Made by a program: the position numbers and the translations under genes | Assembly (NCBI GenBank): GCA_046331705.1 | Contig: JAXLQJ010000012.1 | Span: 1 to 64,000, forward strand | Length of the DNA: 64,000 nucleotides | Direction: 5' to 3' | Source: a bacterium | Lineage (GTDB): Bacteria; JADJOY01 | Notes under the pieces: generated by a model | What the model was told of the DNA's origin: nothing | Database searches by the model: none | The model's input: only the letters and a program-made list of their open reading frames with translations | In this document: positions 340 through 60,626 of the stretch, one piece after another | Position numbering within the stretch: the stretch's first letter is position 1 | Layout: the number at the start of each line of letters is the position of its first letter

Positions 340-1548
340 TCAGAACTCGAGCGTCTGCGCGTAGATGTAGGTGGGCGCGAGCTGGCCTTGCAGCCAGAAG
401 ACGTCGGGGCCATCGACGGGGCTCGAGTAATCGTAGAGCCGAAACGTTCGCGCACCGCGCGGCACCACGCTCGGAAAGCAGGTGTCGCCCTTGGAAGGCA
501 GGTCCACGAGAAAGCTCACGGTGAGCGCCTCGCCGTCCACGCTCCACACCGAGCAACGCTTGGGGTGGAACCAATAATCGAGCTCGTAGACGCCCCATTT
601 CAGGATCTCGAGGGGCAGATCGTCGCGCCCGAGATCGTAGTTGCCGGTGTCGGTGACGTTGCGGCGGCCGATCAGGTAGAGCTCGTCGCCGACGCGAAAG
701 AGCAGCGGCGAGTCGTATTTCTTGGGGTCGGTGGCACAGGTCCAGCTCGTGATGTCTTCCTTGGGTGCGCGGCAGATCTTCGAGCCGAAGCCGTCGGAAT
801 CGCCTTCTTCGTTTCGCACCACGGCGTAGAGGTTGCCGGCGCGATCGAACTCGATGGTGGTCTCCGAGGTGCCGCCCTCGAGAACCACCGGCTTGGCGGG
901 ATCGAACGGGCGCCACGTGAGCCCGTCGTCGGTGGTCAGCAACCACACCTGAATCGGATCGCCCGAGAAGTTGTAGATGTTGTCGCCGCCCGTGTAGCCG
1001 ACCAAGAGCGGCACGCCGTCGTGGATCTTGGTGCGCCACGGGATGAACGTGTCCTCGAAGGTGCGCACCGGCTCCGTCCACTCGCCGGCGGCCACGCGCT
1101 TGGTCACGTACATGCCGCCGGGCACGAACGTGAGCGGGTTCTCGCCGAGCTGCGCGAAGTAGAGGAAGAGCTCGCCGTTCCAGGATAGAAAGCGCGGCTC
1201 GCGCAGGTCGCTCCCCATCTGGATCGTGGCCTCGTGGCTCCACGTGACCTCGTCCGTGGTGCTGAGGACGTAGAGCGTGGTGTCCGGCGACGCGAAGTGC
1301 GACGGCGCCGTGCGAAACGCCAGGAAGAGCCGGCCGTCGTGGTCGACGATGTCGAGATTGTTGTTGGACGTCTGATCGTGGACCTGCGGCGGCAATCCCG
1401 CGCTCGGCACCACCTGGGCGAGCGGACCGAGCGTGGGCACGACCGGCCCGGAAGACGACGAGCCCGAATCGCCGCAGGCCGCACCGAGCACCAAGGTGAG
1501 CCACGCGAGGAATGCGGGCGTGAAGCGTTTCGATCCGGTCGATGCCAT
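340..1548 (-). CDS. Secreted lipoprotein, probable beta-propeller (sialidase/BNR-like)
   Basis: ORF 340..1668, likely start ATG 1548. Hydrophobic stretch plus lipobox (LGAAC), and Asp-box-like motifs STTDEVTW and TTDDGLTW. Confidence 0.65.
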   Translation of the reverse strand: MASTGSKRFTPAFLAWLTLVLGAACGDSGSSSSGPVVPTLGPLAQVVPSAGLPPQVHDQTSNNNLDIVDHDGRLFLAFRTAPSHFASPDTTLYVLSTTDEVTWSHEATIQMGSDLREPRFLSWNGELFLYFAQLGENPLTFVPGGMYVTKRVAAGEWTEPVRTFEDTFIPWRTKIHDGVPLLVGYTGGDNIYNFSGDPIQVWLLTTDDGLTWRPFDPAKPVVLEGGTSETTIEFDRAGNLYAVVRNEEGDSDGFGSKICRAPKEDITSWTCATDPKKYDSPLLFRVGDELYLIGRRNVTDTGNYDLGRDDLPLEILKWGVYELDYWFHPKRCSVWSVDGEALTVSFLVDLPSKGDTCFPSVVPRGARTFRLYDYSSPVDGPDVFWLQGQLAPTYIYAQTLEF

Positions 1549-1895
1549 GCGTGCGCTCCCGCACCAGCGGCGGCACGGGAAGCGCGCGAGAGAGCGCCGC
1601 ACCCGCCGCCGCGAACGTCGTTGCCGAAGGTTACGCGTGCACGGCCGCCGCGAGCAACGAATCTCCACCCCGGCTCACGCGCTCGTGTGACGTTCGCGTC
1701 ACATGCACTCCTGGCGACTCAGCCGCGCGCCAGCGAATGCCCAACGAGCCGAAAATGAGGAGCCCCGCTTCGTCTTCGTCGTGTCCGCTGCCGACGGCGT
1801 TTGGTCCCACGAGTGTCCGTGGTGGGACCGTTCGTCGCCGGGTGTAGACTCGTTTTCACCTATCCGCGGCGACGCGCGCCGCACGGGAGCGAGAC

Positions 1896-2351
1896 ATGGA
1901 CACGCAAGCCATTCAGGCCCTCGCGGCGGAGGCCGTGAAGACGGTCGGCCCGTGGCTGCCGGTGCTGGTCAACAAAGCCGTCGAGAAGACCGGTGAGGCG
2001 ATCCCAGGAAGTGTCGCGAGCGCGTGGAAGGCGCTCGTGGTCCGACTCAAGGGCAAGCCCGAGGTGAGCACCGCCGTGGCCGATCTCGCCGCCAGCAAAG
2101 ACGACGCCGACCTGCAAGCCCAGCTCCGCGTCCAGCTCAAGAAGCTCCTGCTCTCGGATCCCGATCTCGTTCGGGAGCTTGGTGCGGCGCTCGGCCAGGC
2201 GGCGCCGCGCCAAACCCATCAGGTCGCCGTCCAGCACTCGCCGGGCGCCACCGTTGCTTCGGGCGACGGCGCGATCGCGGCGGCGCAGGGCGCAACGGTC
2301 ATCGTGGGCGCAGGTGATCGCGCACGCAGCGGGGACGAGCGCGAGCGATGA
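1896..2351 (+). CDS. Small helical protein (Bell/HeLo-like candidate effector) with C-terminal G/A/T/V-rich motif
   Basis: 151 aa, GGGAG upstream of the ATG, stop overlaps the next start (ATGA). About 100-aa amphipathic helical region, then GATVASGDGAIAAAQGATVI, which recurs in the two downstream genes. Confidence 0.75.
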   Translation: MDTQAIQALAAEAVKTVGPWLPVLVNKAVEKTGEAIPGSVASAWKALVVRLKGKPEVSTAVADLAASKDDADLQAQLRVQLKKLLLSDPDLVRELGAALGQAAPRQTHQVAVQHSPGATVASGDGAIAAAQGATVIVGAGDRARSGDERER

Positions 2352-5209
2352 GCGCCGAACGCGACAAGCAGCTCGCCACCGCCAAGAAGCTCTACGCGTC
2401 CGGCAAGATCTCGGCGAAGCAGTATCAGGCGCTCACGGGCACCCCCGTGCCCGCGGGGCTGAAGCGCCGCCCGTCGCCGCGCGTCCGGGCCGGGAAGGGC
2501 GCCACGGTGGCAGCGGGGGACGGTGCCCGAGCAGCCGCCCGCGACGCCACGATCATCGACCAGGTCCACGGCGACGTGTACGTCGGCAAGCCCGCCAAGA
2601 GCGCCCGCGAGGCGCTCAGGATCTATCGAACGGTTCTCGCCGCCACGACCGGTCAGCTTCCGCTCAGGGGCTTGCTGCCCGGCGCGAGCGACCCGTCCTC
2701 GGCACGACCGCTGCCGCTCGCGGACGTGTACGTGGCGCTCGACACGCGAGGCGGCGAGCCGGGACGAGCGGGCACACCCGACGAATCGGAGATCCTCGAG
2801 TCAGCGCGTCCCGGGCGCGAGCGACAGCGGCCGCTCTCGGTGCTCGCAGCGGTCGCCAAGCACCCTCGGCTGGTGCTGCTGGGCGATCCGGGCTCCGGCA
2901 AGTCCACGTTCTCGAATCATCTGGCGCTCGTGCTCTGCATGCACGCGCTCGAGCCGAAGCAGCGCTGGCTCGATCGGCTACCGCGCTGGCCGAAGGGGCT
3001 GGCGAGTTTGGTTCCGGTGTTGGTCGTGCTCAGGGACTTCGCGGCGGCACTTCCCTCGCCGCTTCCCGAGCGCGCGGTGCCCGAGCACCTCGCGAGTTTC
3101 ATTCGGCGCCGCCTGGCCGAGCAGAAGCTCGCGTTCGCCGGCGCGCCGCTCGAGCGCGCGCTCGACGAAGGCGACGCGCTCGTCGTCTTCGACGGCCTCG
3201 ACGAGCTGCCATCCAAGGATCAACGCCTCTTCGTTCGAGACGCGGTGGCCGCGTTCGTCGCTCGCTTTCCGAAGAGTCGCTACCTGGTCACCTGTCGAAC
3301 GCTCTCCTACCAGCCGCCGCCCACGCCCGAGAACGAGGAGGCCGAACCCGAGCCCGAACCCGATCTCAGGCTCGATCCGAAAGACTTCCCGAGCTTCGAG
3401 ATCGCGCCGCTCGACGACGCCAAGATCCACGGCTTCATCGAGCACTGGTATCGAGAGGTCGCGCGGATCGGCGCCATTGCCACCTCGGGGGTCGCGGGCG
3501 GCATCGCCAAGCTCAGGGTGGCGGTTCAGCGTCGCGATCTCGCCCGCCTTGCGCCCAACCCCCTGCTCTTGACGGTGATGGCATTGGTACACACCCATCA
3601 CGGCGAGCTTCCCGACGCACGCGCACGGCTCTACGAGGAGGCCATCAACATCCTCCTCTGGCGCTGGGACCAGACGCGCCAGGGACGCCGTACGCCGCCG
3701 ATCCGCGAGCGCTTGGCGGACGCGCAGTGCACTGAATCAGACCTGCTGGGAGTGCTGTCGCGACTCGCCTTCGATGTGCACGCCAACGTCGCCGACGCCC
3801 CGGACGGGGAAGCGGTTGCCGACATCGGCGAGCTGGATCTCATCAAGGCGTTGGCGCGGCTCAATCACGGCGACCTCAACTGGGCCGAAGGCCTCGTCGA
3901 AGCCATCAAGCTGCGGGCCGGGCTTTTGGTCGAGCGCCGTGCCGGCGTGTTCGCGTTCCCGCACCGAACCTTCCAGGAGTTCCTCGCTGGTTCGCACCTC
4001 GGCGGGCTCCCCGACTTCGCCGAGCGGAGCACTCGGCTCGTGGCAGCATCACCGATCTGGCGAGAGCCCGTGCTACTCGCCGTCGGGCGCCTCGTGCACG
4101 TCGGACGTGACCGAGAACGGCCGCAGGGTCTCATTGCCAATCTCTGCCCCGAGAGAGTGCGAGACGACGAGGCTGGATGGAAAAAAGTGTGGTTCGCTGG
4201 GGACGTGCTCGGCGAGATCGGCGTTGCGCGGATGCGTGGCACCGAGCTCGGGCAGGATCTCGCGGCGCGGGTTCAGGATCGAGTCGTCGCGCTACTTCGC
4301 GGCGGAAAACTCTCACCCCGCGAGCGCGCGGAAGCCGGCGTGACGCTGACTCGGATCGGCGACCCACGGCAGTCGGTGATGAGCGTCGATGGTCTCGAGC
4401 TGATCGAGATCCCCGCAGGGCCGTTCCTCATGGGCGACGAGTACCACCCGCTCGATCTCCCGAGCTTCCAGATCTCCAAGTTCCCGATCAGCAACGCGCA
4501 ATACGCCGAATTCGTGGAGGCGGGTGGGTACGGCGAAGCGCGCTACTGGAAAGAAGCGATCGCGGCCAAGATCTGGAAGAGCGGCCGGGTGACTGGCTGG
4601 GACGGCGAACCGCGTGATCGACCAAGTCGGTACCGCGTCCCATTCGGGCTCGCGAATCACCCGGTGGTCGGTATCACGTGGTACGAGGCGCTGGCCTTCA
4701 CGCGGTGGCTCACCGAGCGTCGCTGCGAGCTCGGCAAGATGGAGCCGGGTTCCGAAGTGCGTCTCCCCTCCGAGGCCGAATGGGAAAAGGCGGCGCGCGG
4801 CGGCCTCGAGCTTCGGCGCGGGGAACGGAACGACGACCCGAAACGCGAGTACCCGTGGCGGGGTGACATCGATCCGCAGCGTGCGAACTACCGCGACGCC
4901 GGAATCGGCGCCACCAGCGCTGTCGGATGTTTTCCGGGTGGCGCCAGCCCCTACGGAGTCGAGGAGATGAGTGGCAACGTCTGGGAATGGACGCGAAGTG
5001 CGTATCGGGACGTCCCGTACGATCCCGCCGACGGACGCGAGAAGCTCGATCAGCCGCGAAACGTGAGCCGCGTTCTTCGTGGCGGCTCGTACTTCCTCGA
5101 AGCTCCCTACGTTCGTGTCGCGGTCCGCGGCAGGTCCGGACCCGGCGGCCTCTACGGCAGCATCGGTTTTCGGGTGATTGTTTCGTCCCCATCCGACTCT
5201 GGACCCTGA
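2348..5209 (+). CDS. NACHT-type NTPase with C-terminal FGE-sulfatase (SUMF1)/C-type lectin-fold domain (NLR-like protein 1)
   Basis: Walker A GDPGSGKST, Walker B LVVFDGLDE, LVTCR, NPLLL, FPHRTFQEFLA. FGE motifs HPVVGITWYEA, RLPSEAEWEKAARG, MSGNVWEWT, RVLRGGS, IGFRV. Confidence 0.92.
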   Translation: MSAERDKQLATAKKLYASGKISAKQYQALTGTPVPAGLKRRPSPRVRAGKGATVAAGDGARAAARDATIIDQVHGDVYVGKPAKSAREALRIYRTVLAATTGQLPLRGLLPGASDPSSARPLPLADVYVALDTRGGEPGRAGTPDESEILESARPGRERQRPLSVLAAVAKHPRLVLLGDPGSGKSTFSNHLALVLCMHALEPKQRWLDRLPRWPKGLASLVPVLVVLRDFAAALPSPLPERAVPEHLASFIRRRLAEQKLAFAGAPLERALDEGDALVVFDGLDELPSKDQRLFVRDAVAAFVARFPKSRYLVTCRTLSYQPPPTPENEEAEPEPEPDLRLDPKDFPSFEIAPLDDAKIHGFIEHWYREVARIGAIATSGVAGGIAKLRVAVQRRDLARLAPNPLLLTVMALVHTHHGELPDARARLYEEAINILLWRWDQTRQGRRTPPIRERLADAQCTESDLLGVLSRLAFDVHANVADAPDGEAVADIGELDLIKALARLNHGDLNWAEGLVEAIKLRAGLLVERRAGVFAFPHRTFQEFLAGSHLGGLPDFAERSTRLVAASPIWREPVLLAVGRLVHVGRDRERPQGLIANLCPERVRDDEAGWKKVWFAGDVLGEIGVARMRGTELGQDLAARVQDRVVALLRGGKLSPRERAEAGVTLTRIGDPRQSVMSVDGLELIEIPAGPFLMGDEYHPLDLPSFQISKFPISNAQYAEFVEAGGYGEARYWKEAIAAKIWKSGRVTGWDGEPRDRPSRYRVPFGLANHPVVGITWYEALAFTRWLTERRCELGKMEPGSEVRLPSEAEWEKAARGGLELRRGERNDDPKREYPWRGDIDPQRANYRDAGIGATSAVGCFPGGASPYGVEEMSGNVWEWTRSAYRDVPYDPADGREKLDQPRNVSRVLRGGSYFLEAPYVRVAVRGRSGPGGLYGSIGFRVIVSSPSDSGP

Positions 5210-5210
5210 C
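4307..5210 (+). repeat. Copy 1 of a ~0.9-kb dispersed repeat (FGE/CLec domain coding sequence)
   Basis: Colinear with 7481-8382, with offset 3174 before about 7908 and 3172 after about 7935. Long identical stretches include 5028-5090 and 5158-5210. Confidence 0.9.
5078..5209 (+). other. Putative DGR variable region (VR1)
   Basis: Differs from 8250-8381 at 14 positions in 10 codons, all of which change amino acid. Flanked by identical sequence, and lies between RGGS and GFR of a CLec-fold domain. Confidence 0.75.
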
Positions 5211-5227
5211 TCGCGCGAGGATGAGCC

Positions 5228-8200
5228 ATGGCGTTCGATCTGGAGCGGTGGAAGGGGGAGCTGCGCGAGGGGCTCCGGGATTGGCCGGCGAGGATGAAGC
5301 TCGCGGGGGTCACCTCGGTGTATTCGTTTCTGTCCGCGTCGGCGTTGTGGCCCGTCGTGGAGGCGCTGGGGAAGGGTGAGTACTCGGCGATGCTCGCGCT
5401 CGCTGGCGTTGCGGGGAGCGTGGGGACGAATCTGCTGGCCAATCGCATCGAGGCTTGGCGAGGGAAGGCCGAGAACGATGTGGCAGGTGATCTGGAGCGT
5501 GCGCCGATCGAGCCCGAGTTGCGTGAGGCGCTCGACGCGATTCTGAATCAGCTCGGTGCGATCGAAGCCGCGCGTGCGGCAGCGCCTCCGTCCGAATGGG
5601 AGCGCCTGGTGGATCGCTTGGTGCAAGAGCTTCGCGAAGCGGGGAGCGGCGACCGCTTCGACGTCACGGTTGGCGATCATTCGACGGTGGCGGTCGGAAC
5701 GAACGCGATTGCGTTGGCCCGGGGCGCGACGCTCGTTCACGTCGACAACATCGGCCCGGGCGGCCGGGCGGATATCCGCATCGAGAACGACGGCGAGACC
5801 TCGCGTGTCGAGCGGGCGCGTGCGCACTACCTGGAGCGGTTGATCGGTTACTGCACCGCACTCCCGCTTCCGGCGCTCGGTGGCAAGGTGGGGGCGGACG
5901 AGGATCTGAGCCTCGACGATGTCTACGTCCAGCTCGATACGACGACGCGGATCGACGCCGACGGGCGGGTCGTGGGCGATCGGCCGATGAGCCCGGAGGA
6001 CGCGTCGCAGGTGCGGGCTCTCAGCGCTCTCGAAGCAGCGGGCCGAGCAACCCGCCTCGCGATCGTCGGTGGGCCGGGTAGCGGCAAGAGCACGTTCGTG
6101 AAGAGCCTCTTGGTCAAGGTCGCCCGCGCCCAGCTCGGACGTGGCGAGCCACTTGCCGAGTATTCCGCGGAAGACACGCCAGTACTCGTGACCTTGCGCG
6201 AGCTCTCCGACCGGCTGCTGGCAGTGAACACCCACGGCATGTCGGGCGATCGCGAGCGCGCCGCGCTGGCGGGAGCGGTGCGTGAGCTGGTGGAGGCGCA
6301 GGCGACGGCGTGGGAAGCGCCCGAGTTCGCAACGCCCCTCGGACGCGCGCTGACGACGGGCAAGTGCTTGCTGGTCCTCGACGGCCTCGACGAAGTGCCC
6401 GAGGTGACGCGACCGCTGGTTCGCAAGGCGGTGGATGCGGTGCTGCGTCTCTACCGGCCGGCGCGGGTGGTGGTGACTTGCCGCACACGGTCGTATCAAG
6501 GGGAAACACAGATCCCCGACTTCGATCGCCACGAGCTCGCGCCCTTCGACGACGAGAAGATCGAGGCCTTCGTCCGTGCTTGGTATCGGGCCCTGGAGAA
6601 GTGCGGGAAGTTTCTCGCCGACGACGCCCACCGGCGCGAAGCGGATCTGATCGCAGCGGCGGTCCACGATCCGAAGCTCCGAGAGCTGGCCGAGAATCCG
6701 ATGATGCTCACGAGCATCGCGATCATCCATCGCCAGAACGTCACGCTGCCCCGTGAGCGCGTGCGTGTGTACGCGCTGCTCGTCGATTTGCTGTTGCGCC
6801 GCTGGGAAGCCGAGCGTACCGGCCTCACGCCAGTGGATGCCGCCGCCGTGCCGGACAGGCTCACGGCGCTCTTGGCGGAGCCGGCCAAGCTGCGCGAGGT
6901 CGTCGAAGAGCTCGCCTTCGCCGCGCACGGCGGCGGCGCCAGCGGCGCACTCGCGGAGCTGACGCGCTCCGCTGCTCGGGAGCTGCTGGAGCGAAAGGAG
7001 TGCCTCGGCGATGTCGCGCTGGCCGAGGCGTTCTTGAGCTACATCGATTTCCGCGCCGGGCTCCTGAGCGGCTTGGGTGGCGAGGCGAGCCAACCGGCCG
7101 TCTATCGCTTCCCCCACCAGACGCTGCAGGAGTATCTGGCCGGCTGTCGGCTGCTGCGGGGGCTCACCAGCACGCGCGTTCGCCAGATCTTCGACAGTGC
7201 CAAGGGTGACGAGCGGTGGCGAATTCCGGTGCGCTTTGCCGCCGAGGAGCTGCTGCACAACACGCCGCGCAACGGCGATCTCGAGCTGATCGAGCTGGCG
7301 CGCTCCCTCGCGGGCACGCGGGAGGATTCGAGCGTCGAGTCACAGCGCGCGCGTCTCTGGGCGGGCGAGATGGTGGCGCTTCTCGGCGCCGAACGCGTCT
7401 CGAGCGACACGTCAGGTCCTGTGGACGGCGCGAAGTTCCTCGGCGAGACCCGGACAAACCTCGTTCGGCTGCTCGGAAGCAAGCTCGGCCCCATCGAGCG
7501 AGCCGACGCTGGCGTTGCTCTGGCGCGAATCGGTGACTCGCGAAGGGCGGTGATGAGCGTCGATCGCCTGGAGCTGGTCGAGGTTCCTGCTGGACCGTTC
7601 CTGATGGGAGACCGGTATCAGCGGCTCGATCTCCCGCGCTTCTGGATCTCCAAGTTCCCCATCACCAACGCGCAGTACGCCGCGTTCGTGGAGGCAGGTG
7701 GATACGGCGACCCGCGCTACTGGAAAGAGGCGATTGCGGCCAAGGCCTGGAAGGACGGACGGGTGACCGGCTGGGATGAGGAGTCACGCGATCGACCACG
7801 TCAGTTCCGCGTCCCATTCGGGCTCGCGAATCACCCGGTGGTCGGTGTGACCTGGTACGAGGCGCTGGCCTTCACGCGGTGGCTCACCGAGCACCGGCGC
7901 GCACTCGGAAGCTCTCACCCGAGGGCGAGGTGCATTGCCATCGGAAGCAGAGTGGGAGAAGGCGGCGCGCGGCGGCCTCGAGCTCGCGCCGGGGAAGCCG
8001 AACGAAGACCCGAAGCGCGAGTTCCCGTGGCTGGGAGCCATCGATCCCCAGCGCGCGAACTACGACGACACCGGAATCGGCGCCACCAGCGCCGCCGGAT
8101 GCTTCCCGGGTGGCGCCAGCCCCTATGGCATCGAAGACCTGAGCGGCAACGTCTGGGAATGGACGCGAAGCGCGTACCGGGGTCTTCCCTACGATCCCAC

Positions 8201-8381
8201 CGACGGACGCGAGAAGCTCGATCAGCCGCGAAACGTGAGCCGCGTTCTTCGTGGCGGCTCGTTCTTCAACGCTGCTCCCTTCGTTCGTGTCGCGGCCCGC
8301 GGCAGGAACGGACCCGCCTACCTCGACGTCAGCATCGGTTTTCGGGTGATTGTTTCGTCCCCATCCGACTCTGGACCCTGA
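5228..8381 (+). CDS. NACHT-type NTPase with N-terminal helical domain and C-terminal FGE/CLec domain (NLR-like protein 2), interrupted by two 1-nt deletions near 7908-7935
   Basis: GGPGSGKST, LLVLDGLDE, VVTCR, NPMML, FPHQTLQEYLA. The FGE domain continues through two frame changes (KLSPEGEV, then LPSEAEWEKAARG...IGFRVIVSSPSDSGP, stop 8381). The tail of the 1200-aa ORF to 8830 is out of frame. Confidence 0.85.
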
Positions 8382-8382
8382 C
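7481..8382 (+). repeat. Copy 2 of the ~0.9-kb dispersed repeat (FGE/CLec domain coding sequence)
   Basis: Colinear with 4307-5210 and 2 nt shorter. Confidence 0.9.
8250..8381 (+). other. Putative DGR variable region (VR2)
   Basis: See VR1. Retains two AAC codons (8268, 8307) where VR1 has CTC and TCC. Confidence 0.75.
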
Positions 8383-8565
8383 CCCTCTGTCCCCTGGCCT
8401 CTGGAGCCTCAGTCCGAGGCGCTTCTGCACCCGTGCGACTCCGCCACGAGGGCAGGTGGCAGGGCGTGCTACTCACGCGCCGCGGGATGGGTGGATGCGC
8501 CGCGCGCGCCGTGATCTACACTGGTCGCGCGACTCAACTCGACGCGACCGCCGCCGAGGACTCTC

Positions 8566-9750
8566 ATGGACGCCGCCGAGCTCCAACGCCTCATCCGAGA
8601 CACCGAGTCGGATCGGTGTGAGCGGACGCGGTCGCTCACCGACACCGACAAGTTCGCGGAAGCCATCTGTGCTTTCGCCAACGACAGGCCGCGGCACAAG
8701 CAGCCCGGCTACCTCTTCGTGGGCGCTCACCCGGACGGGACGGCCACGGGCGCCGAGATCACGGACCAGATCCTTCAGAACCTTGCGGCGATCCGGTCGG
8801 AGGGGCATATCCAGCCCCTTCCGGTCATGAACGTCGAGAAGTGGAACCTGGGCACGGGCGATCTCGCGGTCGTCGAGGTGTTTCCGTCCGACCTGCCGCC
8901 GGTTCGATACAAGGGGCGCATCTACCTGCGGGTGGGACCGCGTCGCGCGATCGCCAGCGAGGCCGATGAACGCGTGCTCAGCGAGCGCCGCGTGGCGCTG
9001 GCACGAACCTGGGACGCGCGACCTCATCCCCTGGCGTCGCTCGGAGATCTTGCGCTGGACATCTTCGCCCTGAGCTACCGGCCGATGGCGGTGGCGCGCG
9101 AGGTGATCGCGGAGAACGAGCGATCGATCGAGGAGCAGCTCGCCGCGCTGCGTTTGCTCGACCCCGCCACCAGCCGACCGACCAACGCAGCGGTCCTGCT
9201 CTTCGGCAAGGACCCCGTGGCGCTCGTGCCCGGCGCATACGTTCAATACGTCCGCTACCGGGGCCTCTCCGCTGCGGACGAACCGATTCGCGAGCGGCGA
9301 ATCTCGGGCGACCTGCTGACCGTGATGCGGGCGCTCGATCAACTCGCGCAGGAGCTCGCCGGGGAACGTCCGGAGCGGCTTGCCTCGCTCTCCGAAAGAA
9401 TCGTGGCTGCCTATCCCGCGGTTGCGCTCCACGAGCTCTTGATGAACGCCGTCATCCACCGCAACTACGATGGTTCGACGACACCGATCTTGCTGAGCGA
9501 GTTCGAGGATCGAATCGAGATTCAGAGCCCTGGCGGGCTTTTCGGTGATCTCACGCTCCGCGACTTTCCGATGCTCACGTCCTATCGCAACCCCATCCTC
9601 GCCGAGGCCGCGAAGGTGCTCGGGTTCGTGAACCGGTTTGGGCGAGGTATTGCGTTGGCGCAAGCGCAGCTCGCGCGGAACGGCTCGCCGCCCGCGCGCT
9701 TCGACGTCGAAGGGAACCACTTTCTCGCGGTGGTCCGGGCGCACGAATGA
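8566..9750 (+). CDS. AlbA_2 (Schlafen-like) domain fused to HATPase_c_4 (RecG C-terminal-like) domain
   Basis: ESDRCE...AICAFAND...GYLFVG at the N-terminus. Later ALHELLMNAVIHRNY, DRIEIQSPGG, YRNPILAE, FGRGI. GAGGA RBS. Confidence 0.85.
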   Translation: MDAAELQRLIRDTESDRCERTRSLTDTDKFAEAICAFANDRPRHKQPGYLFVGAHPDGTATGAEITDQILQNLAAIRSEGHIQPLPVMNVEKWNLGTGDLAVVEVFPSDLPPVRYKGRIYLRVGPRRAIASEADERVLSERRVALARTWDARPHPLASLGDLALDIFALSYRPMAVAREVIAENERSIEEQLAALRLLDPATSRPTNAAVLLFGKDPVALVPGAYVQYVRYRGLSAADEPIRERRISGDLLTVMRALDQLAQELAGERPERLASLSERIVAAYPAVALHELLMNAVIHRNYDGSTTPILLSEFEDRIEIQSPGGLFGDLTLRDFPMLTSYRNPILAEAAKVLGFVNRFGRGIALAQAQLARNGSPPARFDVEGNHFLAVVRAHE

Positions 9751-10757
9751 AGACCGTCGTCTTCTTCAACAACAAGGGTGGCGTGGGCAAGACGTCGCTC
9801 GCGTATCACCTGGCGTGGATGCTCAATCGCCTCGGTCGTCGCGTGCTCGCTCTCGATCTGGATCCGCAGGCGAATCTGTCGAGCGCGTTTCTCGACGAAG
9901 ACCGCCTGGAAGAGCTGTGGCCGGAGTCGGGCACTCGCCGCACGATTCTGGGCGCGCTCGAGCCGTTGCTCGAGCATCTTGGGGACATCGTCCCGCCGCA
10001 CGTCGAAGTGATCGCCGACGGGCTGGGTCTCGTTCCCGGCGACCTCGGTCTCAGCCTCTTCGAGGACCGGCTCGCGGAGGCGTGGCCGAAGTGCCTCACC
10101 GAGAAGGCCGCGGACGCGGCGGATGCATTCCGTGTAACCACGTCGTTCTACCGAATCGCGGCGGCTGCCGCGTTGGAGCTCGGCGCGGAGCTGGTCTTGA
10201 TCGACGTCGCACCGAGCCTCGGCGCCTTGAACCGCGCGGCGCTCGTCGCCGCGGATCACGTCGTCGTGCCGTTGGGGGTAGACCTCTTCTCCCTTCAGGG
10301 GCTGCGGAACCTCGGACCGACGCTGAAGACGTGGCGCGCGGGATGGGCGCGACGCGTGATTCACGCCCCGGCGACCTTGGGTGCGGTCCCCAGCGGCCGG
10401 ATGCACCCCATTGGTTATGTCGTGATGCAGCACGCGGTGCGCGGCGACCGCCCTGTGAAGGCGTACCAGCGCTGGGTAGAGCGGATCCCCGAGGCGTACG
10501 TCACGGAGCTCGGCGAAGACGAGCAGGTGGCTGTCGATCCCGATCCAAATCGCCTCGCGATGCTCAAGCACTATCGAAGCCTGATGCCGCTGGCGCAGGA
10601 CGCGCGGAAGCCGATGTTTGCTCTCACCCCCGCAGATGGGGCGCTGGGCGGTCACACCAAGGCCGTTCAGGACTGCTACGCGGACTTCGAGCGATTGGCG
10701 CGGGAAATCGTCCGCCGCGTGGAGACGGACGCAGCCCGGCACCTGGCGCGACCGTAG
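9747..10757 (+). CDS. ParA/Soj-family ATPase
   Basis: FFNNKGGVGKT deviant Walker A, DLDPQANLS, LIDVAPSLG. ATGA overlap with the upstream gene. Confidence 0.9.
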   Translation: MKTVVFFNNKGGVGKTSLAYHLAWMLNRLGRRVLALDLDPQANLSSAFLDEDRLEELWPESGTRRTILGALEPLLEHLGDIVPPHVEVIADGLGLVPGDLGLSLFEDRLAEAWPKCLTEKAADAADAFRVTTSFYRIAAAAALELGAELVLIDVAPSLGALNRAALVAADHVVVPLGVDLFSLQGLRNLGPTLKTWRAGWARRVIHAPATLGAVPSGRMHPIGYVVMQHAVRGDRPVKAYQRWVERIPEAYVTELGEDEQVAVDPDPNRLAMLKHYRSLMPLAQDARKPMFALTPADGALGGHTKAVQDCYADFERLAREIVRRVETDAARHLARP

Positions 10758-11251
10758 CCGGATGGGATCGCACATCCGCCGAAGTCGAGGCGGATGCCGG
10801 TGCGGCCGGTGAGGGACGGGGTGCCGCTGTTGTCGCCGCAGTCGCCGTGATCGGTGTAGCGCACCTCGACCACCAGGAAGATGTCGCCGATACCCAGATC
10901 GTGGTCGCTCGGCGAGACGACGATGAGCGCGGCCTTGCACCCGTGGAGGGGCTCTTCGGGACGCGAGTGCGTGTTGTGGCAGAGGCGGATGTCCCACACG
11001 ACCTCCGCGCAGTCGACGGTGCCGGTGGTGTGGCACGAACCGCCGCCACCGGCGGCGAGGAGCGCGAGCACTTGCAGCGCCGCAACGTTGCATCGCGTGC
11101 GGGTCGCACGATGTGCGAGGTTGGTACGCAAGGATCGCGCGAAAGCTCGCGGATCGTGAGGTTTCTCGCGGGCGTGATCCAGGTGCCTGTGGTAAGGAAA
11201 CCGAGCGAGCATCCGCGCCCGACGCGCGGAGCCGCGACGCACGAGGACGAG

Positions 11252-11947
11252 TTGAGCAAGCCGCAGGTTCTGCTGGTCGACGACGATCCGAGCCTGCTCG
11301 ACGTGCTGTCGATGGCGTTCGGCGATGCGGGCTACGACGTGGCGACGGCCGAGGACGGCTCCGAGGCGCTCGAGAAGCTCGCCGTCCGCAAGCCGGACTT
11401 GCTCGTCACCGACATCAACATGCCGGTGCTCGATGGTTTCACGCTGCTCAAGCGGCTGCGCGACAAGCGGCTCGAGCTGCCGGTGATCCTGCTCACCTCG
11501 CGCGACAACGAGATCGACGAGAGTCTGGGTCTCGAGCTGGGGGCCGACGATTACGTGGCCAAGCCGTTCAGCACGCGGGTGCTCTTGGCGCGGATGGCGG
11601 CGTTGCTTCGGCGCGAGCGGTTGCGGGCGAGCGGCGAGGAGCCGAGCCCGATGATCGCGTGCGGGGCGCTCGAGCTGCGCGTGGACCACATGCTCGCCCG
11701 CTACGCCGGCCACGCGATCGAGACCACGGTGACCGAGTTCCGGCTGCTGGAGGCGTTCGCGCGGCGTCCCGGCGTGGTGCTCTCGCGCGAGCGGCTCATG
11801 GAGCTGGGGCGCGGCGACGACTCGATCGTGGGCGATCGGATCATCGACACCTACGTGCGCCGCTTGCGCCGCAAGCTCGAGGCGGTGGAGGCCGGCTTCG
11901 ACCGGATCGAGACGGTGATCGGCGCCGGCTATCGCTGGAAGGCGTGA
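11252..11947 (+). CDS. OmpR/PhoB-family response regulator (CreB/ChvI-like)
   Basis: C-terminal part of ORF 9638..11947. TTG start after GAGGA. VLLVDDD, DINMP, GADDYVAKPF, winged-helix end IETVIGAGY. Confidence 0.9.
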   Translation: MSKPQVLLVDDDPSLLDVLSMAFGDAGYDVATAEDGSEALEKLAVRKPDLLVTDINMPVLDGFTLLKRLRDKRLELPVILLTSRDNEIDESLGLELGADDYVAKPFSTRVLLARMAALLRRERLRASGEEPSPMIACGALELRVDHMLARYAGHAIETTVTEFRLLEAFARRPGVVLSRERLMELGRGDDSIVGDRIIDTYVRRLRRKLEAVEAGFDRIETVIGAGYRWKA

Positions 11948-11960
11948 GCGTGCCTCGCTC

Positions 11961-13514
11961 ATGAGCGCCGCTGGCGAGCAGCAGCGATTCGGCGCGCGTA
12001 CGCAGGGTTCCGCGCCGGCCGTCCGTCGCATCCCCCGGGTCCGCTCGCTCCGCACCCGCGCGGTGCTGGTGGTGGTGCTGGTGCTGCTCTGCCCGCCGCT
12101 CTTCGTGACGGTCTCGGCGATCTTCGAGGAGAGCGTCGAGCGGCGGCTCGGCACGCGGGTCGAGGTCGCGGCGCACGAGGCGCTCGCCGAGCTGGGCCCG
12201 TTCGCGAGTGCCGCGCCGCCGGGCGCCGAGGTGCTCGCGCGGCTGGCGCGGAGCCTCGACGCCATCGCCGCGCGTCACGAGGTGTGGCTGCGTGTCGTCG
12301 ACGGCGACGACCGCGTGATCGTCGATGCACGCCACGACCGCGCGTCGAACGCCATCCAGCGCCTCGGCCGCCTCGTCTTCGGCGAGGACGGTGCGCCGAC
12401 GCTCGCGGACTTCGACGCCGCGCAGGGCGCCCTCGCCGCGCGCCCGGAGATCGCGTCGGCCCGCGCCCGCGGGCGCGACGCGGGTTGCCGCACCTCGCCC
12501 GAGGGAAAGCTCCTGGTCTGTCACGCGGCGCTGGTGCCGGCGACGAGCGGGCGGGACGCGTCCGCGGCGCTCGCCATCCACGCGGCCAAGAGCGCGCGCC
12601 GCAGCGTGCGGGCGCTCTACGACCTCGAATACCAGCTCAAGAAGCTCATGCTGCTCGTGCTCCCCGTGGCGCTGGCGCTCGCGTGGTGGCTGGGCCGGCG
12701 CATGGTGCGGCCGATCGAGGAGCTGCGCGAGCAGGTGCTCGCGCAGGCGAGCGCCGCGAGCCCGCGCGCGGAGCTGCACGTGGCTCGCCGCGACGAGCTC
12801 CAGGATCTCGCCGCCGCGTTCAACGCGCTTCTCGCCACGCTCGAGAGCCGCAACCGCGCCAACGAAGCGTTCAGCGCGGACCTCGTCCACGAGCTCAAGA
12901 ACCCCGTGGCGGCGATTCGCACCGCCGCCGAGTCGCTGGCGGCGGGGCCGGTCGACGCCGAGCGCGCGGGACGCCTCGCACGGGTGCTGAGCGACAGCAG
13001 CGCTCGCCTCGATCGGGTGGTGACGCAGTTCCTGGAGCTGGCGCGCGCCGAGGGCGGCATGCGCGACGAGCCTCGCGAGCCCATCGATCTCGCGGCGCTC
13101 GTTGGCGCGCTCGTCGAGCGCGCGCGCGGCGACGAACGCTACGCCGACCGGCGGCTCACGTGCTCGGCGCCCGACCCCGCGCGGGTGATGGGTGTTGCGG
13201 AGCGACTCGAAACCGCGCTACGGAATCTGCTCGACAACGCGCTCGATTTCGCCGGCCCCGGCGGTGAGGTGGACGTGACCATCGAGATGGATGCGAGCGC
13301 GGTGCGGGTGCGCGTCTCGGACGACGGGCCGGGGATCCCGGCGGAGGCGCTGCCACGCGTCTTCGAGCGCTTCTTCACCACCCGTGGCGCCAAGCGCGGC
13401 ACCGGCCTCGGCCTGGCGATGGTGCGCGCCATCGCGGAGGCGCACGGCGGCGGCGTGCGCGTGGATTCCTCGCCGGAGCGCGGCACCACCTTCGAGCTCA
13501 CGGTGCCGCGATGA
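11961..13514 (+). CDS. Sensor histidine kinase with HAMP domain (CreC/ChvG-like)
   Basis: Two TM segments, H-box DLVHELKNP, N-box NLLDNA, DDGPGI, GTGLGL. Confidence 0.92.
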   Translation: MSAAGEQQRFGARTQGSAPAVRRIPRVRSLRTRAVLVVVLVLLCPPLFVTVSAIFEESVERRLGTRVEVAAHEALAELGPFASAAPPGAEVLARLARSLDAIAARHEVWLRVVDGDDRVIVDARHDRASNAIQRLGRLVFGEDGAPTLADFDAAQGALAARPEIASARARGRDAGCRTSPEGKLLVCHAALVPATSGRDASAALAIHAAKSARRSVRALYDLEYQLKKLMLLVLPVALALAWWLGRRMVRPIEELREQVLAQASAASPRAELHVARRDELQDLAAAFNALLATLESRNRANEAFSADLVHELKNPVAAIRTAAESLAAGPVDAERAGRLARVLSDSSARLDRVVTQFLELARAEGGMRDEPREPIDLAALVGALVERARGDERYADRRLTCSAPDPARVMGVAERLETALRNLLDNALDFAGPGGEVDVTIEMDASAVRVRVSDDGPGIPAEALPRVFERFFTTRGAKRGTGLGLAMVRAIAEAHGGGVRVDSSPERGTTFELTVPR

Positions 13515-14749
13515 CGATCGAGGACGCCGACACCGCGCCCAGCCGCTGGCGCGCCGAAGCCGCCGAGCTGCGCGCGGCGTCGTGGCGCGGCTGGCCGCGA
13601 CGTTTCGTGGGCTGGGCGTTTCGCCGTCCGCTGCTCGCCAGCGACGAGGTCACGGACTTCCAGGAATACGCGCAAGGCATGAGCAGCGGGTTCGGGCGGC
13701 TCACGGCGGCGGTGGCGAGCATCCTCTTGATCGGTCTGTGGCCGCTCGATTGGTGGATCTATCCGATGGGCGATCGCCGCGCGTGGCTCTCGGCGGCTTG
13801 GCGGGTGGCGGCCGCGGGCGTGCTGCTCGGCGCGTTGCGCGTCGCCGAGAGTCGCGAGCGCAACCGCAAGAATCCGGTGCCGGCGTGGATCACGGCGTCG
13901 GTGCTCGCGGTGGGGCTCTCGTACCTGGTGGCGGGCGAGCTGGGCGATCCCACCACGCCGTGGATCCACACCTCGCTCCTGGTGCCGCTGCTGAGCGTGC
14001 CGATGCTGCTCGGGCTGGTGGCGCGCGCGGGGCTCACGCTGGCGCTCGCGGGAGCGGCGCAGCTCGCGTACTACGCGCCGCACCCCGCGTATCTCGCGTC
14101 GCCCTACGTGGCGGCGATCTTCGGCTCGCTCACCGCCTCGTGCGTGACCAGCGTGGTCCTCGGGCACGCGCTCTTCGTGATCATCCGGCGCGATTTCCGG
14201 TCGCGCGTGGACCTGCGGCGCTTGAGCCGCACCGACGCGCTCACCGGCGTGTGGAACCGCAGCTATTTCCTGGAACGTGCGGACGTCGAGGTCTTGCGCG
14301 CTCGGCGTAGCGAGACGCCGCTCGCGGTGCTGCTCGTCGACCTCGACCGGTTCAAGTCCGTCAACGACCGTTTCGGCCACGCCACCGGCGACGCCGTGCT
14401 CGCGGACTTCGTCGCCCGCGCGCAGCAGGTCTTGCGTCGCACCGACGTGATGGGACGGCTGGGCGGCGAGGAGTTCGCGGTGCTCCTCACCGACACGCCG
14501 CTCGTCACCGCGGTGGAGGCGGCCGAGCGCTTGCGACGCGAGGTGGAGGAGGAACGCCCGGCGCGCGCGCTGGCTGGCCAGGCGTTGCCCGCCTACACGG
14601 TCAGCATCGGTTGCGCCGCGTTTCACCACGACGATCCCAACGTCGACGCCATCCTGCGGCGCGCGGATCTGGCGCTCTACCAGGCCAAGGGATTCGGCAG
14701 GAACCGCGTCGTGAGCGAGCCCAGCGGCGCGACCTCCGTGCCCGGCTGA
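13511..14749 (+). CDS. Membrane-bound diguanylate cyclase
   Basis: Multiple TM helices, TDALTGVWNR, DLDRFKSVND, RLGGEEF. ATGA-coupled to the kinase gene. Confidence 0.92.
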   Translation: MTIEDADTAPSRWRAEAAELRAASWRGWPRRFVGWAFRRPLLASDEVTDFQEYAQGMSSGFGRLTAAVASILLIGLWPLDWWIYPMGDRRAWLSAAWRVAAAGVLLGALRVAESRERNRKNPVPAWITASVLAVGLSYLVAGELGDPTTPWIHTSLLVPLLSVPMLLGLVARAGLTLALAGAAQLAYYAPHPAYLASPYVAAIFGSLTASCVTSVVLGHALFVIIRRDFRSRVDLRRLSRTDALTGVWNRSYFLERADVEVLRARRSETPLAVLLVDLDRFKSVNDRFGHATGDAVLADFVARAQQVLRRTDVMGRLGGEEFAVLLTDTPLVTAVEAAERLRREVEEERPARALAGQALPAYTVSIGCAAFHHDDPNVDAILRRADLALYQAKGFGRNRVVSEPSGATSVPG

Positions 14750-54350: not shown

Positions 54351-55607
54351 TCAGAACAGATCGATCTCGCCTGCGGCCATGTTTTCCTGGCGCACCGCCC
54401 GATGCTCTTCCCGCACGCATTCGGCGGCGGTCTCCTCGCTCCAGCGAATCAGCTCGTCGCAGGCGTGATCTTCCGCGCTCACGCGTTGGCTCGCGCCGTT
54501 CAGGTACTCGGACAAGCGCTGGACGTCGCGCAGCCGGTGATCGAGGAGCTGGGTGAGGATGTCCTCGAACTGCAGCGAGCGGACCGCGTCCGCGACCCCG
54601 CGCTCGATGTCCTGCGTGATGCTGGAGACGTCGTCGAGCCCGGAGGCGACGCGCGTGTTGGTCTCGGCGAGATCGCCCATCATGCGGTTGACGGTCTCGC
54701 GCGACTCCACCGCGGTGTTGAGGTCGCGCGACGCGAACTCGCGTACCAGTCGCGTCACGTCGTGGGTGATGGCGCGCGCTTCCCGAACCGCGTCGCCGAT
54801 CTGGGTGCCGAACTGATTCGAGCGACGCGAGAGCTCGCGCACCTCGTTGGCGACGATCTTGAACCCGGCGCCAGCCTCCCCCGCGCGTGCCGCCTCGATG
54901 GTGGCGTTGAGCGCGAGCAGGTTGGTCTTCTTGGCGATGTCGGCCTGGTCCTTCAGCAGCCGCTCGACGCGGTCCATGCTCGCGCCGATCTCCTGGATGC
55001 GGTGCACGATCTCCATGCTGTTCTTGCTGACCACCACGATGTGATCGACGAACGAGCCGAGGATGTCGTCGGTCTTGCGGATGAACGCCTGCAAGCCCGC
55101 GTTCTCGTCGCCGGGCCGGTCGTTCTCGCCGTGCCCCAGCCTGCTCACCAGATCGCGTACCAGCGACTCCTGCGCGACGACCTGGTTGCGGATCTGCTCG
55201 AACCCGGAATAGAGCGTGGCGATCGCGTCGCGCAGGATGCCGCGCACCTGCACGAGGTCGCCGTCGGTGCGCGTGAGCACGACCACGCTGGTGCGGGCCA
55301 GATCGTCGATCACGCGCACGCGGGTGTCGGTCACGACGGGTGCGGCGGGAGTCGCCCCCGGCCGCCGCCACGCGGCCCGCAACGACGTGCCGATCCAGGT
55401 CGCGAGCGCCGCGCCGAGCGCCACCGGCGCGAAGGCGGGCGCCGCGGCGGCGAGCGCGACGGCGACCACGGAGACGGTCAGCGCCGGGGCGTTCACGCGC
55501 GCCCACTCCGGCAGCGGTCCGGCCACGAGCCGCTCGCGCGCGGAACGCACGAGCCGCGAGATTGCCGCTGCGCCGGTCGGTGGGGCGATGGGCTCGATCA
55601 TGTCCAT
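54351..55607 (-). CDS. Methyl-accepting chemotaxis protein (short, McpA-like)
   Basis: [26 protein letters not shown]-terminal GEIDLF. Confidence 0.9.
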
Positions 55608-55698
55608 GCGTGACTCTCCGTCGCCGAGGGGCCAGGTCGGCCCGTTCGAGCTGACCCCGGTGGACCCAGGTGCCCAGCGAGTGGCGTGCGGCAGCGCA

Positions 55699-56823
55699 TC
55701 AGCGGACCAGTGCCAGCACGGATCGTGCCACCTGAGAGAGCGGTACCACGGCGTCCACGGCGCCGCGTTTGACCGCTTCGCCGGGCATTCCCCAGACGAC
55801 GCTCGAAGCCTGGTCCTGGGCCAGGGTCTTGGCGCCGTTCTCCCGCATCTCGAGCAACCCCTGGGCGCCGTCGGCGCCCATGCCCGTGAGGATCACGCCG
55901 ATCGCGTTGGGGCCGGCGCTTTGCGCCACCGAGCGGAACATCACGTCCACCGAGGGGCGGTGGCGGTTCACGGGTGGGCCATCGCTGAGCTCGCACACGT
56001 ACTGGGCGCCGTTTCGACGCAGCAGCAGATGGCTGTGGCCCGGCGCGATGTACACGTGGCCCGGCAGAACTTGCTGCCCGTGCTCCGCTTCGCGCACCGA
56101 CATCGGCGAGGTGGTGTCGAGCCGCCTCGCGAACGGGCCGCTGAAGGCCTCGGGGATGTGCTGCGAGATCAGGATGCCGGGGGCGTCCGCGGGCAGCTGG
56201 TCGAGCACCTCGCGAATCGCCTCGGTGCCGCCGGTGGAGGCGCCGATGGCGATCACTCGATCGGTGGTGCGGAAATGGCCGCGCGCGGCCGCGCGCTGGA
56301 TCACCGCGTCCGCGGAGAGCTTTCCCTCGATCGGCGCGGGGGCGGCGCGCGCCGCGCGGTCGCGCGTGGTCACCCGGGCGCCGGCGGCGCTGCGTACCTT
56401 GGCGATGATCTCCTCGGCGCACGCTTCCAGGCCGCGTGCTTGGTCGATCTTGGGCTTGGAGACGAAGTCGACGGCGCCCAGCGAGAGCGCCTCGAGCGTC
56501 ACGTCCGCGCCCTTCTCGGTCAGCGACGACACCATCACCACGGGCATGGGTCGCAAGCGCATGAGATTGGACAGGAACTTGAGGCCGTCCATCCGCGGCA
56601 TCTCGACGTCGAGGGTGAGGACGTCGGGATCGAGCTCCTTGATCTTGTCGCGCGCGATGAACGGATCGGACGCCGTGCCCACGACCTCGAGATCCCGCGC
56701 CGAGCCGAGGATCTCGGTCAGGAGCCTGCGCATCAGCGCCGAGTCGTCGACGATCAGGACGCGGGTTCGGCGCTTCACGTCGTCGGTGGCGCGGGCGCGC
56801 GTCACGGTGGCGGTGATTGGCAT
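55699..56823 (-). CDS. cheB: Chemotaxis methylesterase
   Basis: Receiver domain plus [24 protein letters not shown]. Confidence 0.96.
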
Positions 56824-56838
56824 GGTGAGATCGACCTC

Positions 56839-57498
56839 TCAGAAGAGCTCGACCGCTCCGCGCTGCGGCTTGGCTCGGAGCGTCGTGGCGTAGGCTCGTT
56901 CGCGTTGGAAGATCGTGTCGTTGGCGAGCTTCTTGAGCTTGAGGACGCGGACCCGCCCGGTCAGCGGCTGGTAGTAGACCTTGCGCGGATAGACGTCCTC
57001 GACGTCCTCGCCCAGCACCGCGAGCCCCTCGGCCTTCAGGAACTCGCGAGCGAACGCCACGTTCATCTTCCCGACGTTGGTCATCCCCGCGAGCACCGCG
57101 CCGCCGCCGGTGATCTTGATCTCGAGGTCCTTGCGGCGCGAGCCGCGCTTGATGAGCTCGTTCAGGAGCGTTTCGATCGCGAAGCTCCCGTAGCGCGTCG
57201 CTTGCGAGGGATCGTCCACCTCCCAGCCGCCGCCGTTGGTGGCGTGGGTCGGCAGCATGAAGTGGTTCATGCCGCCGATCCGCCGCACCGGATCGCGCAC
57301 GCACACCGAGACGCAACTGCCGAGCACCGTGACGATGAGCTCGTCGTTGCGCGTGACGTAGTACTCGCCGGGCAGGATCTTGGCCGCGTACGTGCCGTGC
57401 AGCGGGTCCCAGTAGCGCGTGATGTGGCCGAAGCCGGCCAGCGGCTCGGGCAACGAGCTGCCGCGCGGCTCGGGGATGCGTGGCGCCGCGCTCAACAT
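56839..57498 (-). CDS. cheD: Chemoreceptor glutamine deamidase
   Basis: KILPGEYY, TVLGSCVS, GGMNHFMLP. ATG 57498. Confidence 0.94.
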   Translation of the reverse strand: MLSAAPRIPEPRGSSLPEPLAGFGHITRYWDPLHGTYAAKILPGEYYVTRNDELIVTVLGSCVSVCVRDPVRRIGGMNHFMLPTHATNGGGWEVDDPSQATRYGSFAIETLLNELIKRGSRRKDLEIKITGGGAVLAGMTNVGKMNVAFAREFLKAEGLAVLGEDVEDVYPRKVYYQPLTGRVRVLKLKKLANDTIFQRERAYATTLRAKPQRGAVELF

Positions 57499-58343: not shown

Positions 58344-58446
58344 CGAACGAGGTCCTCGATGGGGAGGGGCTGCGGCGGCGCGGCGTGGGTCGGTTCACGT
58401 CGCGCCGAGACGAGCCGGTGGCGCGACACGCTCGAACGAGCTCGGC

Positions 58447-60558: not shown

Positions 60559-60626
60559 GGTCCACTACCTCGTCGCATCGTGCAGGCTTCCTCGACTGGG
60601 CATCGACTGCGGTTCGCCAGCGCGCG

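Follow-up and report, generated by a model that had tools for sequence, protein, structure and literature searches.

A probable bacterial NOD-like receptor operon in which a small helical protein shares a motif with two NACHT-FGE receptors carrying a footprint of diversity-generating retroelement type

Can a single bacterial operon bring together receptors whose sensor tips are rewritten by a diversity-generating retroelement (DGR) and a short tag that relays their signal to a separate effector? The question is raised by three collinear genes located on the forward strand of a 64,000-nt stretch of DNA (hereafter, the window), which represents the first 64 kb of contig JAXLQJ010000012.1 (C12) of assembly GCA_046331705.1 (G000), an 8.17-Mb, 95.7% complete genome in 118 contigs assigned to the JADJOY01 lineage. 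An initial annotation of this DNA had seen here a module resembling the NOD-like receptors (NLRs), composed of a small protein and two NACHT receptors sharing one motif; this architecture is supported by the analysis reported below, and the motif is found to co-vary in related loci. The overall best explanation, which is held with moderate confidence, is that the locus is a real NLR-type conflict operon, serving defence or self/non-self recognition, in which both a motif-based relay and DGR-written sensor tips would take part.

The operon comprises the gene of a 151-aa protein, P0001 (1896-2351), gene 1 (2348-5209; product P0002) and gene 2 (from 5228; P0003 and P0004 in its first and second reading frame, respectively). 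The tight packing initially described is confirmed by the coordinates of the open reading frames (ORFs), P0001 and gene 1 overlapping by 4 nt (2348-2351) and gene 1 being separated from gene 2 by 18 nt (5210-5227); the frames of all three genes are backed by the periodicity of the G+C content at third codon positions (GC3). The 953-aa product of gene 1 consists of a short N-terminus, the motif, a NACHT-type STAND NTPase and a sensor of FGE/C-type-lectin (CLec) fold; the latter is recognised by Pfam as FGE-sulfatase (4397-5179, residues 684-944; E 4.2e-49), while NACHT scores 26.0 bits, just below the Pfam cut-off of 26.7. The first frame of gene 2 (5228-7891) encodes a helical and hydrophobic N-domain of about 150 aa, the motif, a NACHT module (residues 277-454, 38.3 bits against the same cut-off) and the first half of the FGE domain (profile positions 4-110 only), the second half (profile positions 112-254, E 1.2e-26) being encoded in another frame (7935-8381). 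The Walker A and Walker B strings GSGKST and DGLDE are seen in the translations of both genes, and the solved relatives of the FGE domain include FGE, ToxD and EgtB as well as TvpA (2y3c, E 3.1e-8), a variable protein of a DGR. Genes 1 and 2, whose products are 42% identical, are tandem fusions of a STAND NTPase to a C-terminal FGS/CLec domain, as in the class described by Kaur et al. (2021) and Doré et al. (2024). The first 150 residues or so of gene 2 (5228-5680) make up a distinct helical domain containing two stretches that are hydrophobic and Gly-rich; comparison with the profile of the P0001 family by hhalign gave no relation (probability 0.3%), and the leads obtained from the ESM Atlas, all below 0.9, point to short hypothetical proteins and to N-terminal helical domains of NACHT proteins.

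A DGR is suggested by the way in which the two sensor ends differ. In a gap-free alignment of gene 1 (4766-5209) with gene 2 (7938-8381; offset 3172), the upstream FGE core (261 nt) carries 43 differences, 27 of them at codon position 3, corresponding to a divergence of about 16%, while the flanks of the variable block that follows are near-identical: a 5' block of 63 nt has a single difference and a 3' block of 51 nt, extending up to the stop codon, has none. Between them, the 69-nt variable block (5090-5158 in gene 1, 8262-8330 in gene 2), which resembles the variable repeat (VR) of a DGR, contains 14 differences, of which 13 fall at codon position 1 or 2; the 10 codons affected are all changed non-synonymously, and the contrast with the upstream core in the use of codon positions 1+2 versus 3 is significant (Fisher p = 4e-4). 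The initial description of ends differing only at clustered non-synonymous sites is therefore accurate for the last 183 nt, i.e., for the homogenised tracts 5027-5209 and 8199-8381, but not for the core upstream of them. The variable region lies at the extreme C-terminus of a C-lectin/FGE fold, 51-120 nt before the stop, and its variation is confined to positions 1 and 2 of scattered codons in an otherwise nearly invariant repeat. Over both copies, the bases at the 14 variable sites are A (9), T (9), C (5) and G (5); because adenine occupies only 4 of these sites in gene 1 and 5 in gene 2, neither end is the template of the other, and the end of gene 2, considered as a template in its own right, was rejected on this count. 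With adenine placed at every one of the 14 sites, the tract would encode a peptide similar to the Asn-rich templates found on contig C10 of the same genome and in the L053 cassette (see below). Homogenisation combined with site-restricted scrambling is the product expected of templated mutagenic homing. Logan contigs of four public sequencing runs break at 4799-5181 and at about 7700-8353, where the paralogues share 31-mers; a search for near-identical fragments of the gene 2 end returned 171 proteins at E<=1e-30, with an identity of at most 66% among the 120 matches listed.

The same footprint of DGR type is displayed by a second tandem pair, located on the minus strand of contig C43 of G000 (7174-13716). 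Its first member, P0005 (1201 aa), consists of TIR, a P0001-like domain, the motif, NACHT and FGE, and is 49% identical to the product of gene 1; the second, P0006 (947 aa), consists of the motif, NACHT and FGE. Orthologues of both are present in a congeneric genome (G002, contig C90), and in the four ends taken together 23 sites vary within 96 nt, of which 22 occupy the first or second position of their codon, every other position being identical in all four, while the paralogues are only 70-72% identical upstream; the 23 variable sites are 79% A+T in a genome that is 68% G+C. At both loci a receptor devoid of an effector domain (P0002, P0006) is found together with one endowed with an N-terminal domain (P0003, P0005), a pairing which suggests a motif-mediated co-assembly of sensors and helpers.

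The second feature of the operon is the motif itself, a stretch of about 20-30 residues rich in Gly, Ala, Val and Thr and prone to beta structure, which precedes the NACHT module in each of the two ATPases and recurs in the tail of P0001. The three copies are found at residues 117-136 of P0001 (2244-2303; GATVASGDGAIAAAQGATVI), at residues 51-70 of P0002 (2498-2557; 15 of 20 residues identical to the first copy) and at residues 152-181 of P0003 (5681-5770; 15 of 30 identical, BLASTP E 0.002). The motif being of low complexity, its significance was assessed by Smith-Waterman scoring of the P0001 tail against a genomic background, namely the 180 N-terminal residues of 6000 open frames taken from the 12524 in the genome that are 300 aa or longer: P0002 and P0003 score 75 and 60, respectively, to be compared with a 99.9th percentile of 54 and a maximum of 75. 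The single motif common to all three proteins, as read in the initial annotation, is real and not due to chance. Located towards the C-terminus of P0001, it recurs in the N-terminal part of the NACHT protein encoded by the adjacent, collinear gene, and is distinct from the named EAD or Death-like adaptors, as no Pfam EAD match was obtained in P0001, P0002 or P0003.

A survey of homologous loci bears this out, since the motif was found to be conserved and to co-vary between the tail of the small protein and the gene that follows. A genome scan gave 79 loci, spread over Nostocales, Streptomyces, Nonomuraea, Streptosporangium, Chloroflexota, Acidobacteriota and further taxa, and 77 of them contain a P0001-like ORF; this ORF is followed, in 38 of these cases, by another of 300 aa or more that begins on the same strand between -60 and +900 nt. 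When 21 non-redundant tails were compared with the front of each partner (carrying TPR in 15 cases and NB-ARC in 13), the cognate pair scored above all 20 non-cognates in 9 of 21, and at most two non-cognates reached the cognate score in 15 of 21.

What kind of protein is P0001? The AlphaFold2 model shows helices over residues 3-98 (block-mean pLDDT 63-84) and a tail (102-151) with pLDDT around 40, so that a helical bundle of about 100 residues followed by a disordered tail is predicted. Scans against Pfam, NCBIfam and PADLOC gave no family match for P0001; for its family they gave no consistent assignment, with EAD10 in 2 of 71 members, EAD7 in 1 of 62 and GapS6a in 2 of 71. Among 141 Foldseek matches of the model to the PDB none reached E<=0.001, all being generic helical bundles, and the best hit of a PDB sequence profile search had E 0.065. 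The family is nonetheless large: a profile search collected 2276 representatives at E<=1e-3 (992 at E<=1e-10), mostly of 130-160 aa; its members begin with a conserved MD, and their helical domain, roughly 100 aa long, is followed by a tail of 25-30 aa that varies. Asp2 is invariant in one family alignment (A2) and consensus in two others (A3, A5). Ten matches, eight of them chosen among the longer ones, were scanned for domains, yielding two NACHT-FGE, two NB-ARC-TPR and two NACHT-only proteins, in all of which the P0001-like domain is an N-terminal fusion, one weak CHAT match and three proteins with nothing.

These properties recall the gene pairs described by Dyrka et al. (2020; bioRxiv 10.1101/2020.01.06.895854), in which a Bell-domain protein and an NLR carry bacterial amyloid signalling sequences (BASS1-10). 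[quoted passage not shown] The difference resides in the sensor, which is an FGE/CLec domain with a DGR footprint here and is made of TPR or WD repeats there. Since the proteins are short and helical, carry an acidic residue 2-3, come from the same taxa, overlap collinearly with the next NLR gene and share a motif with its product, it is likely that the P0001 family consists of Bell-domain proteins with a tag of BASS type.

Does the complete arrangement occur anywhere? A 7.6-kb contig (L053, 1-7595) from an Anaerolineales metagenome-assembled genome holds the full cassette. First comes the end of an FGE gene, whose variable repeat spans 448-582, and then a P0001-like gene (712-1590), in which a motif other than that of the window is present as two pseudo-repeats and whose product has a hydrophobic stretch at its C-terminus. 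These are followed by a NACHT-FGE gene (1591-4866), containing the L053 motif once (2125-2181) as well as a variable repeat of its own (4727-4861), a DGR reverse transcriptase (RT; 4903-6054), an ORF following the RT which, as judged by eye, is putatively Avd-like, and an Asn-rich template (6428-6562). Because L053 holds all the parts, the full combination of Bell-like gene, NACHT-FGE target, RT and template, as predicted from these sequences, exists in nature, and the locus of the window looks like the L053 design deprived of a linked retroelement.

Indeed, no DGR RT or accessory gene was found near the operon within the window. In the genome, two RVT_1 genes are present, of which only that on contig C10 is of DGR type. 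Its locus (C10:179735-183322) comprises an FGE target, a 117-aa HRDC protein, a 336-aa RT, an Asn-rich template and a second FGE target of 304 aa; every inspected mismatch between template and VR falls at a template adenine, and the VR of the second target has a 1-nt deletion with respect to the template. By its sequence organisation it is a genuine, classical and apparently working DGR. The other RT (C2:162756-166454, 453 aa), considered as a second DGR RT, was rejected, being of retron type (PADLOC RT_other, E 4.5e-157). RTs of DGR type are also found in two relatives, namely G001 and G002, the gene of the latter being next to a STAND-FGE gene on a contig of 3.3 kb; the genus therefore has DGR-type elements, which assemble poorly. 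Of the RT-diversified sensors proposed in the initial annotation, what stands is the DGR-type footprint, while neither a cognate template nor a linked RT was found; similarly, the search of the genome for RT and template envisaged there yielded the C10 DGR, but no template cognate to these ends.

The initial annotation had also read gene 2 as a single frame up to 8381 and had missed a frame change at about 7892-7934, the second half of the FGE domain lying in the other frame. The frame opened at 5228 leaves the FGE domain near 7892 and continues as junk to 8830; accordingly, GC3 favours this frame up to about 7800 and then switches. The spacer between the conserved WLTE and LPSEAEW strings measures 43 nt in gene 2 (7892-7934), as against the 45 nt (15 aa) of gene 1 and of the two C43 genes, and a MAFFT alignment with gene 1 opens single-nucleotide gaps in gene 2 at two columns, 446 and 474. 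A Logan contig from one of the public runs (X7) covers 7591-7958 with two gaps somewhere along its length.

The architecture of genes 1 and 2 has close precedents. Kaur, Iyer, Burroughs and Aravind (2021, eLife; PMC8195603) described STAND-FGS proteins with N-terminal adaptors shared with effector genes, present in several copies per genome with DGR parts nearby or elsewhere, and proposed such systems as analogues of hypermutating adaptive receptors. The present locus resembles them in the NACHT NTPase with a C-terminal FGS/FGE domain, in the N-terminal module shared with a separate partner and in the several copies per genome; it differs in that a short motif prone to beta structure, preceded by a Bell-like helical domain, takes the place of a named globular EAD or Death-like domain as the shared module, and in that no DGR template was found for the ends in the window. 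Doré et al. (2024, PNAS; PMC10907252) reported clade 5D DGRs that diversify two STAND-CLec targets and have effectors coupled to them through adaptors, some of the loci being remote or incomplete. As in our locus, targets such as those of DGR 3 and DGR 6 of Thiohalocapsa PB-PSB1 are duplicated, each having a NACHT or nSTAND1 module at its centre and a single CLec end that is diversified; nearly all variable positions are first or second positions of codons, and an effector encoded nearby is linked through an adaptor common to both (EAD8 in DGR 6). The occurrence of incomplete loci and of remote targets is a further point of likeness. There, RT and template were identified and diversification was demonstrated in metagenomes, whereas here no cognate template or linked RT was found and diversification is suggested by a footprint; moreover, the effector is a peptidase there and a small helical protein here. 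A further parallel is offered by Bab/Agp of E. coli, for which amyloid-signalling abortive infection has been reported from experiments (Ibarlosa et al. 2024; bioRxiv 10.1101/2024.11.07.622273): adjacent genes share an amyloid motif, and a sensor activates a helical, membrane-acting executioner. The function, experimental in that case, is inferred in ours, and the likeness is drawn from the described layout of the gene pair.

In view of these papers, the initial suggestion that the combination had not been characterised was too strong, as STAND-FGS proteins with shared adaptors and DGRs are described in both Kaur et al. (2021) and Doré et al. (2024); the locus is a further example of systems known from comparative genomics, and its design principle is not new. 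As to the more specific pairing of a Bell/BASS-type tag with a STAND-FGE/DGR system, no account was found in the literature searched, with the proviso that supplements (e.g., Table S2 of Dyrka et al.) may contain such pairs. A literature search combining 'Bell domain' with formylglycine gave nothing, and one combining amyloid, DGR and NLR in full texts gave only Kaur et al. (2021) and Doré et al. (2024), each with a single mention of "amyloid", that of Doré et al. being in the reference list.

On this background the following mechanism may be envisaged. The sensor tips, i.e., the last 40 codons or so, would be written from a common template by mutagenic retrohoming, the process typical of DGRs; upon binding of a ligand to the tip, the NACHT modules would oligomerise and bring the N-terminal motifs together, and the clustered motifs would template or recruit the matching tail of P0001. 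The helical domain of P0001 would then act, probably on the membrane, as has been proposed for Bell and shown for Bab/Agp. Gene 1, which has no effector domain of its own, would rely on this relay; gene 2 has an N-terminal helical domain of its own. Four elements are inferred for the present locus, namely that a ligand is bound, that the motif templates amyloid, that the effector kills and that the DGR is active today, amyloid formation and killing being attributed by analogy with the systems just mentioned. Since template and RT are neither linked to the operon nor found in the assembly, diversification would either occur in trans, from DNA that was not assembled, or have stopped.

Several results weigh against this picture as far as the retroelement is concerned. 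No third copy or template repeat for the two ends was found in G000, even by a six-frame inventory, no cognate template in G001-G005 (all the other genomes of the phylum that were compared), and no match to the degenerate repeat pattern in JGI metagenome contigs (0 matches); in none of these sets was there a repeat differing from the VR only at template adenines. The C10 template is non-cognate, being only about 60% identical to the ends in the window, and gene 2, as assembled, is broken by its frameshift, be it due to decay, strain variation or assembly error. All this would be explained if the operon were a relic, whose DGR has been lost, whose ends are frozen alleles and whose gene 2 is decaying, leaving at most an NLR pair of fixed specificity; degenerate DGR loci with missing or pseudogenised key machinery are indeed reported by Doré et al. 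(2024). Drift, however, should have eroded the non-variable positions of the ends, which are identical between paralogues, synonymous sites included, and in the C43-type ends between two species as well. The assemblies, moreover, are fragmented (118 and about 750 contigs), and cassettes as short as the contig carrying the G002 RT are easily lost from bins; since that of G000 is not complete, absence of the template from the organism itself is not established. In addition, Doré et al. observed diversification at all but one of the loci that were incomplete or had remote targets. A relic is therefore regarded as a possible but minority explanation. Also rather unlikely is the most far-reaching form of the opposite view, in which one unassembled set of DGR templates, perhaps on a separate replicon, would keep rewriting in trans four NLR-like receptors at two loci of this uncultured bacterium of activated sludge, all signalling via prion-like templating of the motif to a Bell-type executioner; if true, it would couple hypermutated recognition to amyloid signal amplification, and the effector-less P0002 and P0006 would use either their domain-bearing paralogues or P0001 as helpers.

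Other results bear on the relay. Composition-adjusted BLASTP gives the motif pair of P0001 and P0002 only 12.3 bits (E 26), a weak score due to its low complexity; in 6 of the 21 tails compared with their partners there is no signal, although in one of these, L053, the tail had been wrongly set; and in P0005 a domain homologous to P0001 (residues 183-316, E 2e-12) stands with the motif in line between TIR and NACHT, so that the free N-terminus expected for a membrane helix of HeLo/Bell type is not always present. The last point also fits a rival reading in which the motif is no amyloid tag and serves the NLR N-terminus either for ordinary homotypic contacts, as an adaptor, or as one of its structural elements, P0001 being an adaptor, a decoy or a regulator of receptor assembly and not an executioner; effector-associated adaptor domains are used in this manner (Kaur et al. 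2020, 2021), the few EAD10 and EAD7 matches within the family (best E 1.5e-6 for EAD10) go in the same direction, and the motif is Gly/Ala-rich, without the Asn and Gln of many family tails. Yet P0001 itself has no Pfam EAD match; its size, Asp2, helical bundle with disordered tail, taxonomic range, collinear overlap and tail matching all fit Bell/BASS, and the two pseudo-repeats in the small protein of L053, against one in its NLR, reproduce the layout which Dyrka et al. (2020) give for BASS1, BASS6 and HET-s. We consider this rival reading rather unlikely. The footprint could finally be imagined to have arisen with no retroelement at all, by gene conversion between tandem paralogues lying 3.17 kb apart and positive selection on binding residues, and it is true that the identical tract reaches about 40 nt past the point where a template typically starts and that the 11 adenines of the 63-nt block upstream of the variable block are unchanged, which also speaks against mutagenic homing there: this block lies either outside the template or was shaped by gene conversion. 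Against this, 13 of 14 changes fall at the first or second position of a codon, and often at the two together, with the third-position C retained and no synonymous change, and the variable sites are A/T-rich in a G+C-rich genome; the same sites vary in the four C43-type ends of two species with all other positions fixed, and C10 and L053 provide genuine templates built on the same plan. This last explanation is very improbable, and the NLR-type conflict operon with motif relay and DGR-written tips remains the preferred reading.

As to the genomic setting, the operon starts 1.9 kb from the end of contig C12, and its upstream neighbour is a divergent minus-strand gene (340-1668, by GC3 periodicity). 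A Shine-Dalgarno-like GGGAG (1885-1889), identified by reading the sequence, lies 6 nt 5' of the P0001 start codon on the same strand; a scan of 1500-9000 found no sigma-70-like promoter (0.3 expected), and a terminator scan of the same interval found a single terminator-like site, inside gene 1, which is below chance expectation. GC3 is 0.81-0.83 in the operon (0.82 in P0001) and in the next two genes, against 0.88-0.92 in the flanking genes, which hints at an acquired island of about 10 kb. The two genes that follow (8566-10757) encode a 394-aa protein with Schlafen AlbA_2 and HATPase_c_4 domains, overlapping by 4 nt a 336-aa ParA-like ATPase; the former has PADLOC matches to N-terminal domains of Argonaute-associated proteins, and both have a GC3 (0.82-0.83) as low as that of the operon. 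Towards the other end of the window (54819-61239), two families of direct repeats (D3 and D4; 69-74% identical, with spacings of 2153 and 4144 nt) suggest tandem paralogous genes. The stretch is contained in 20 of 24 listed rows of public sequencing runs, belonging to 13 studies, mostly of activated sludge and wastewater.

The host phylum is barely sampled (6 genomes among those compared) and is recurrent in activated-sludge metagenomes. According to Doré et al. (2024), no CLec-sensor system of either class has been tested by experiment; the locus offers compact material for this purpose, namely a putative 151-aa effector, a receptor without an effector domain (gene 1) and a natural full cassette, L053, which would be a better model locus than that of the window. 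If the reading proposed here holds, one operon would join retroelement-diversified 'antigen sensor' NLRs to an amyloid-tag relay acting on a Bell-type executioner.

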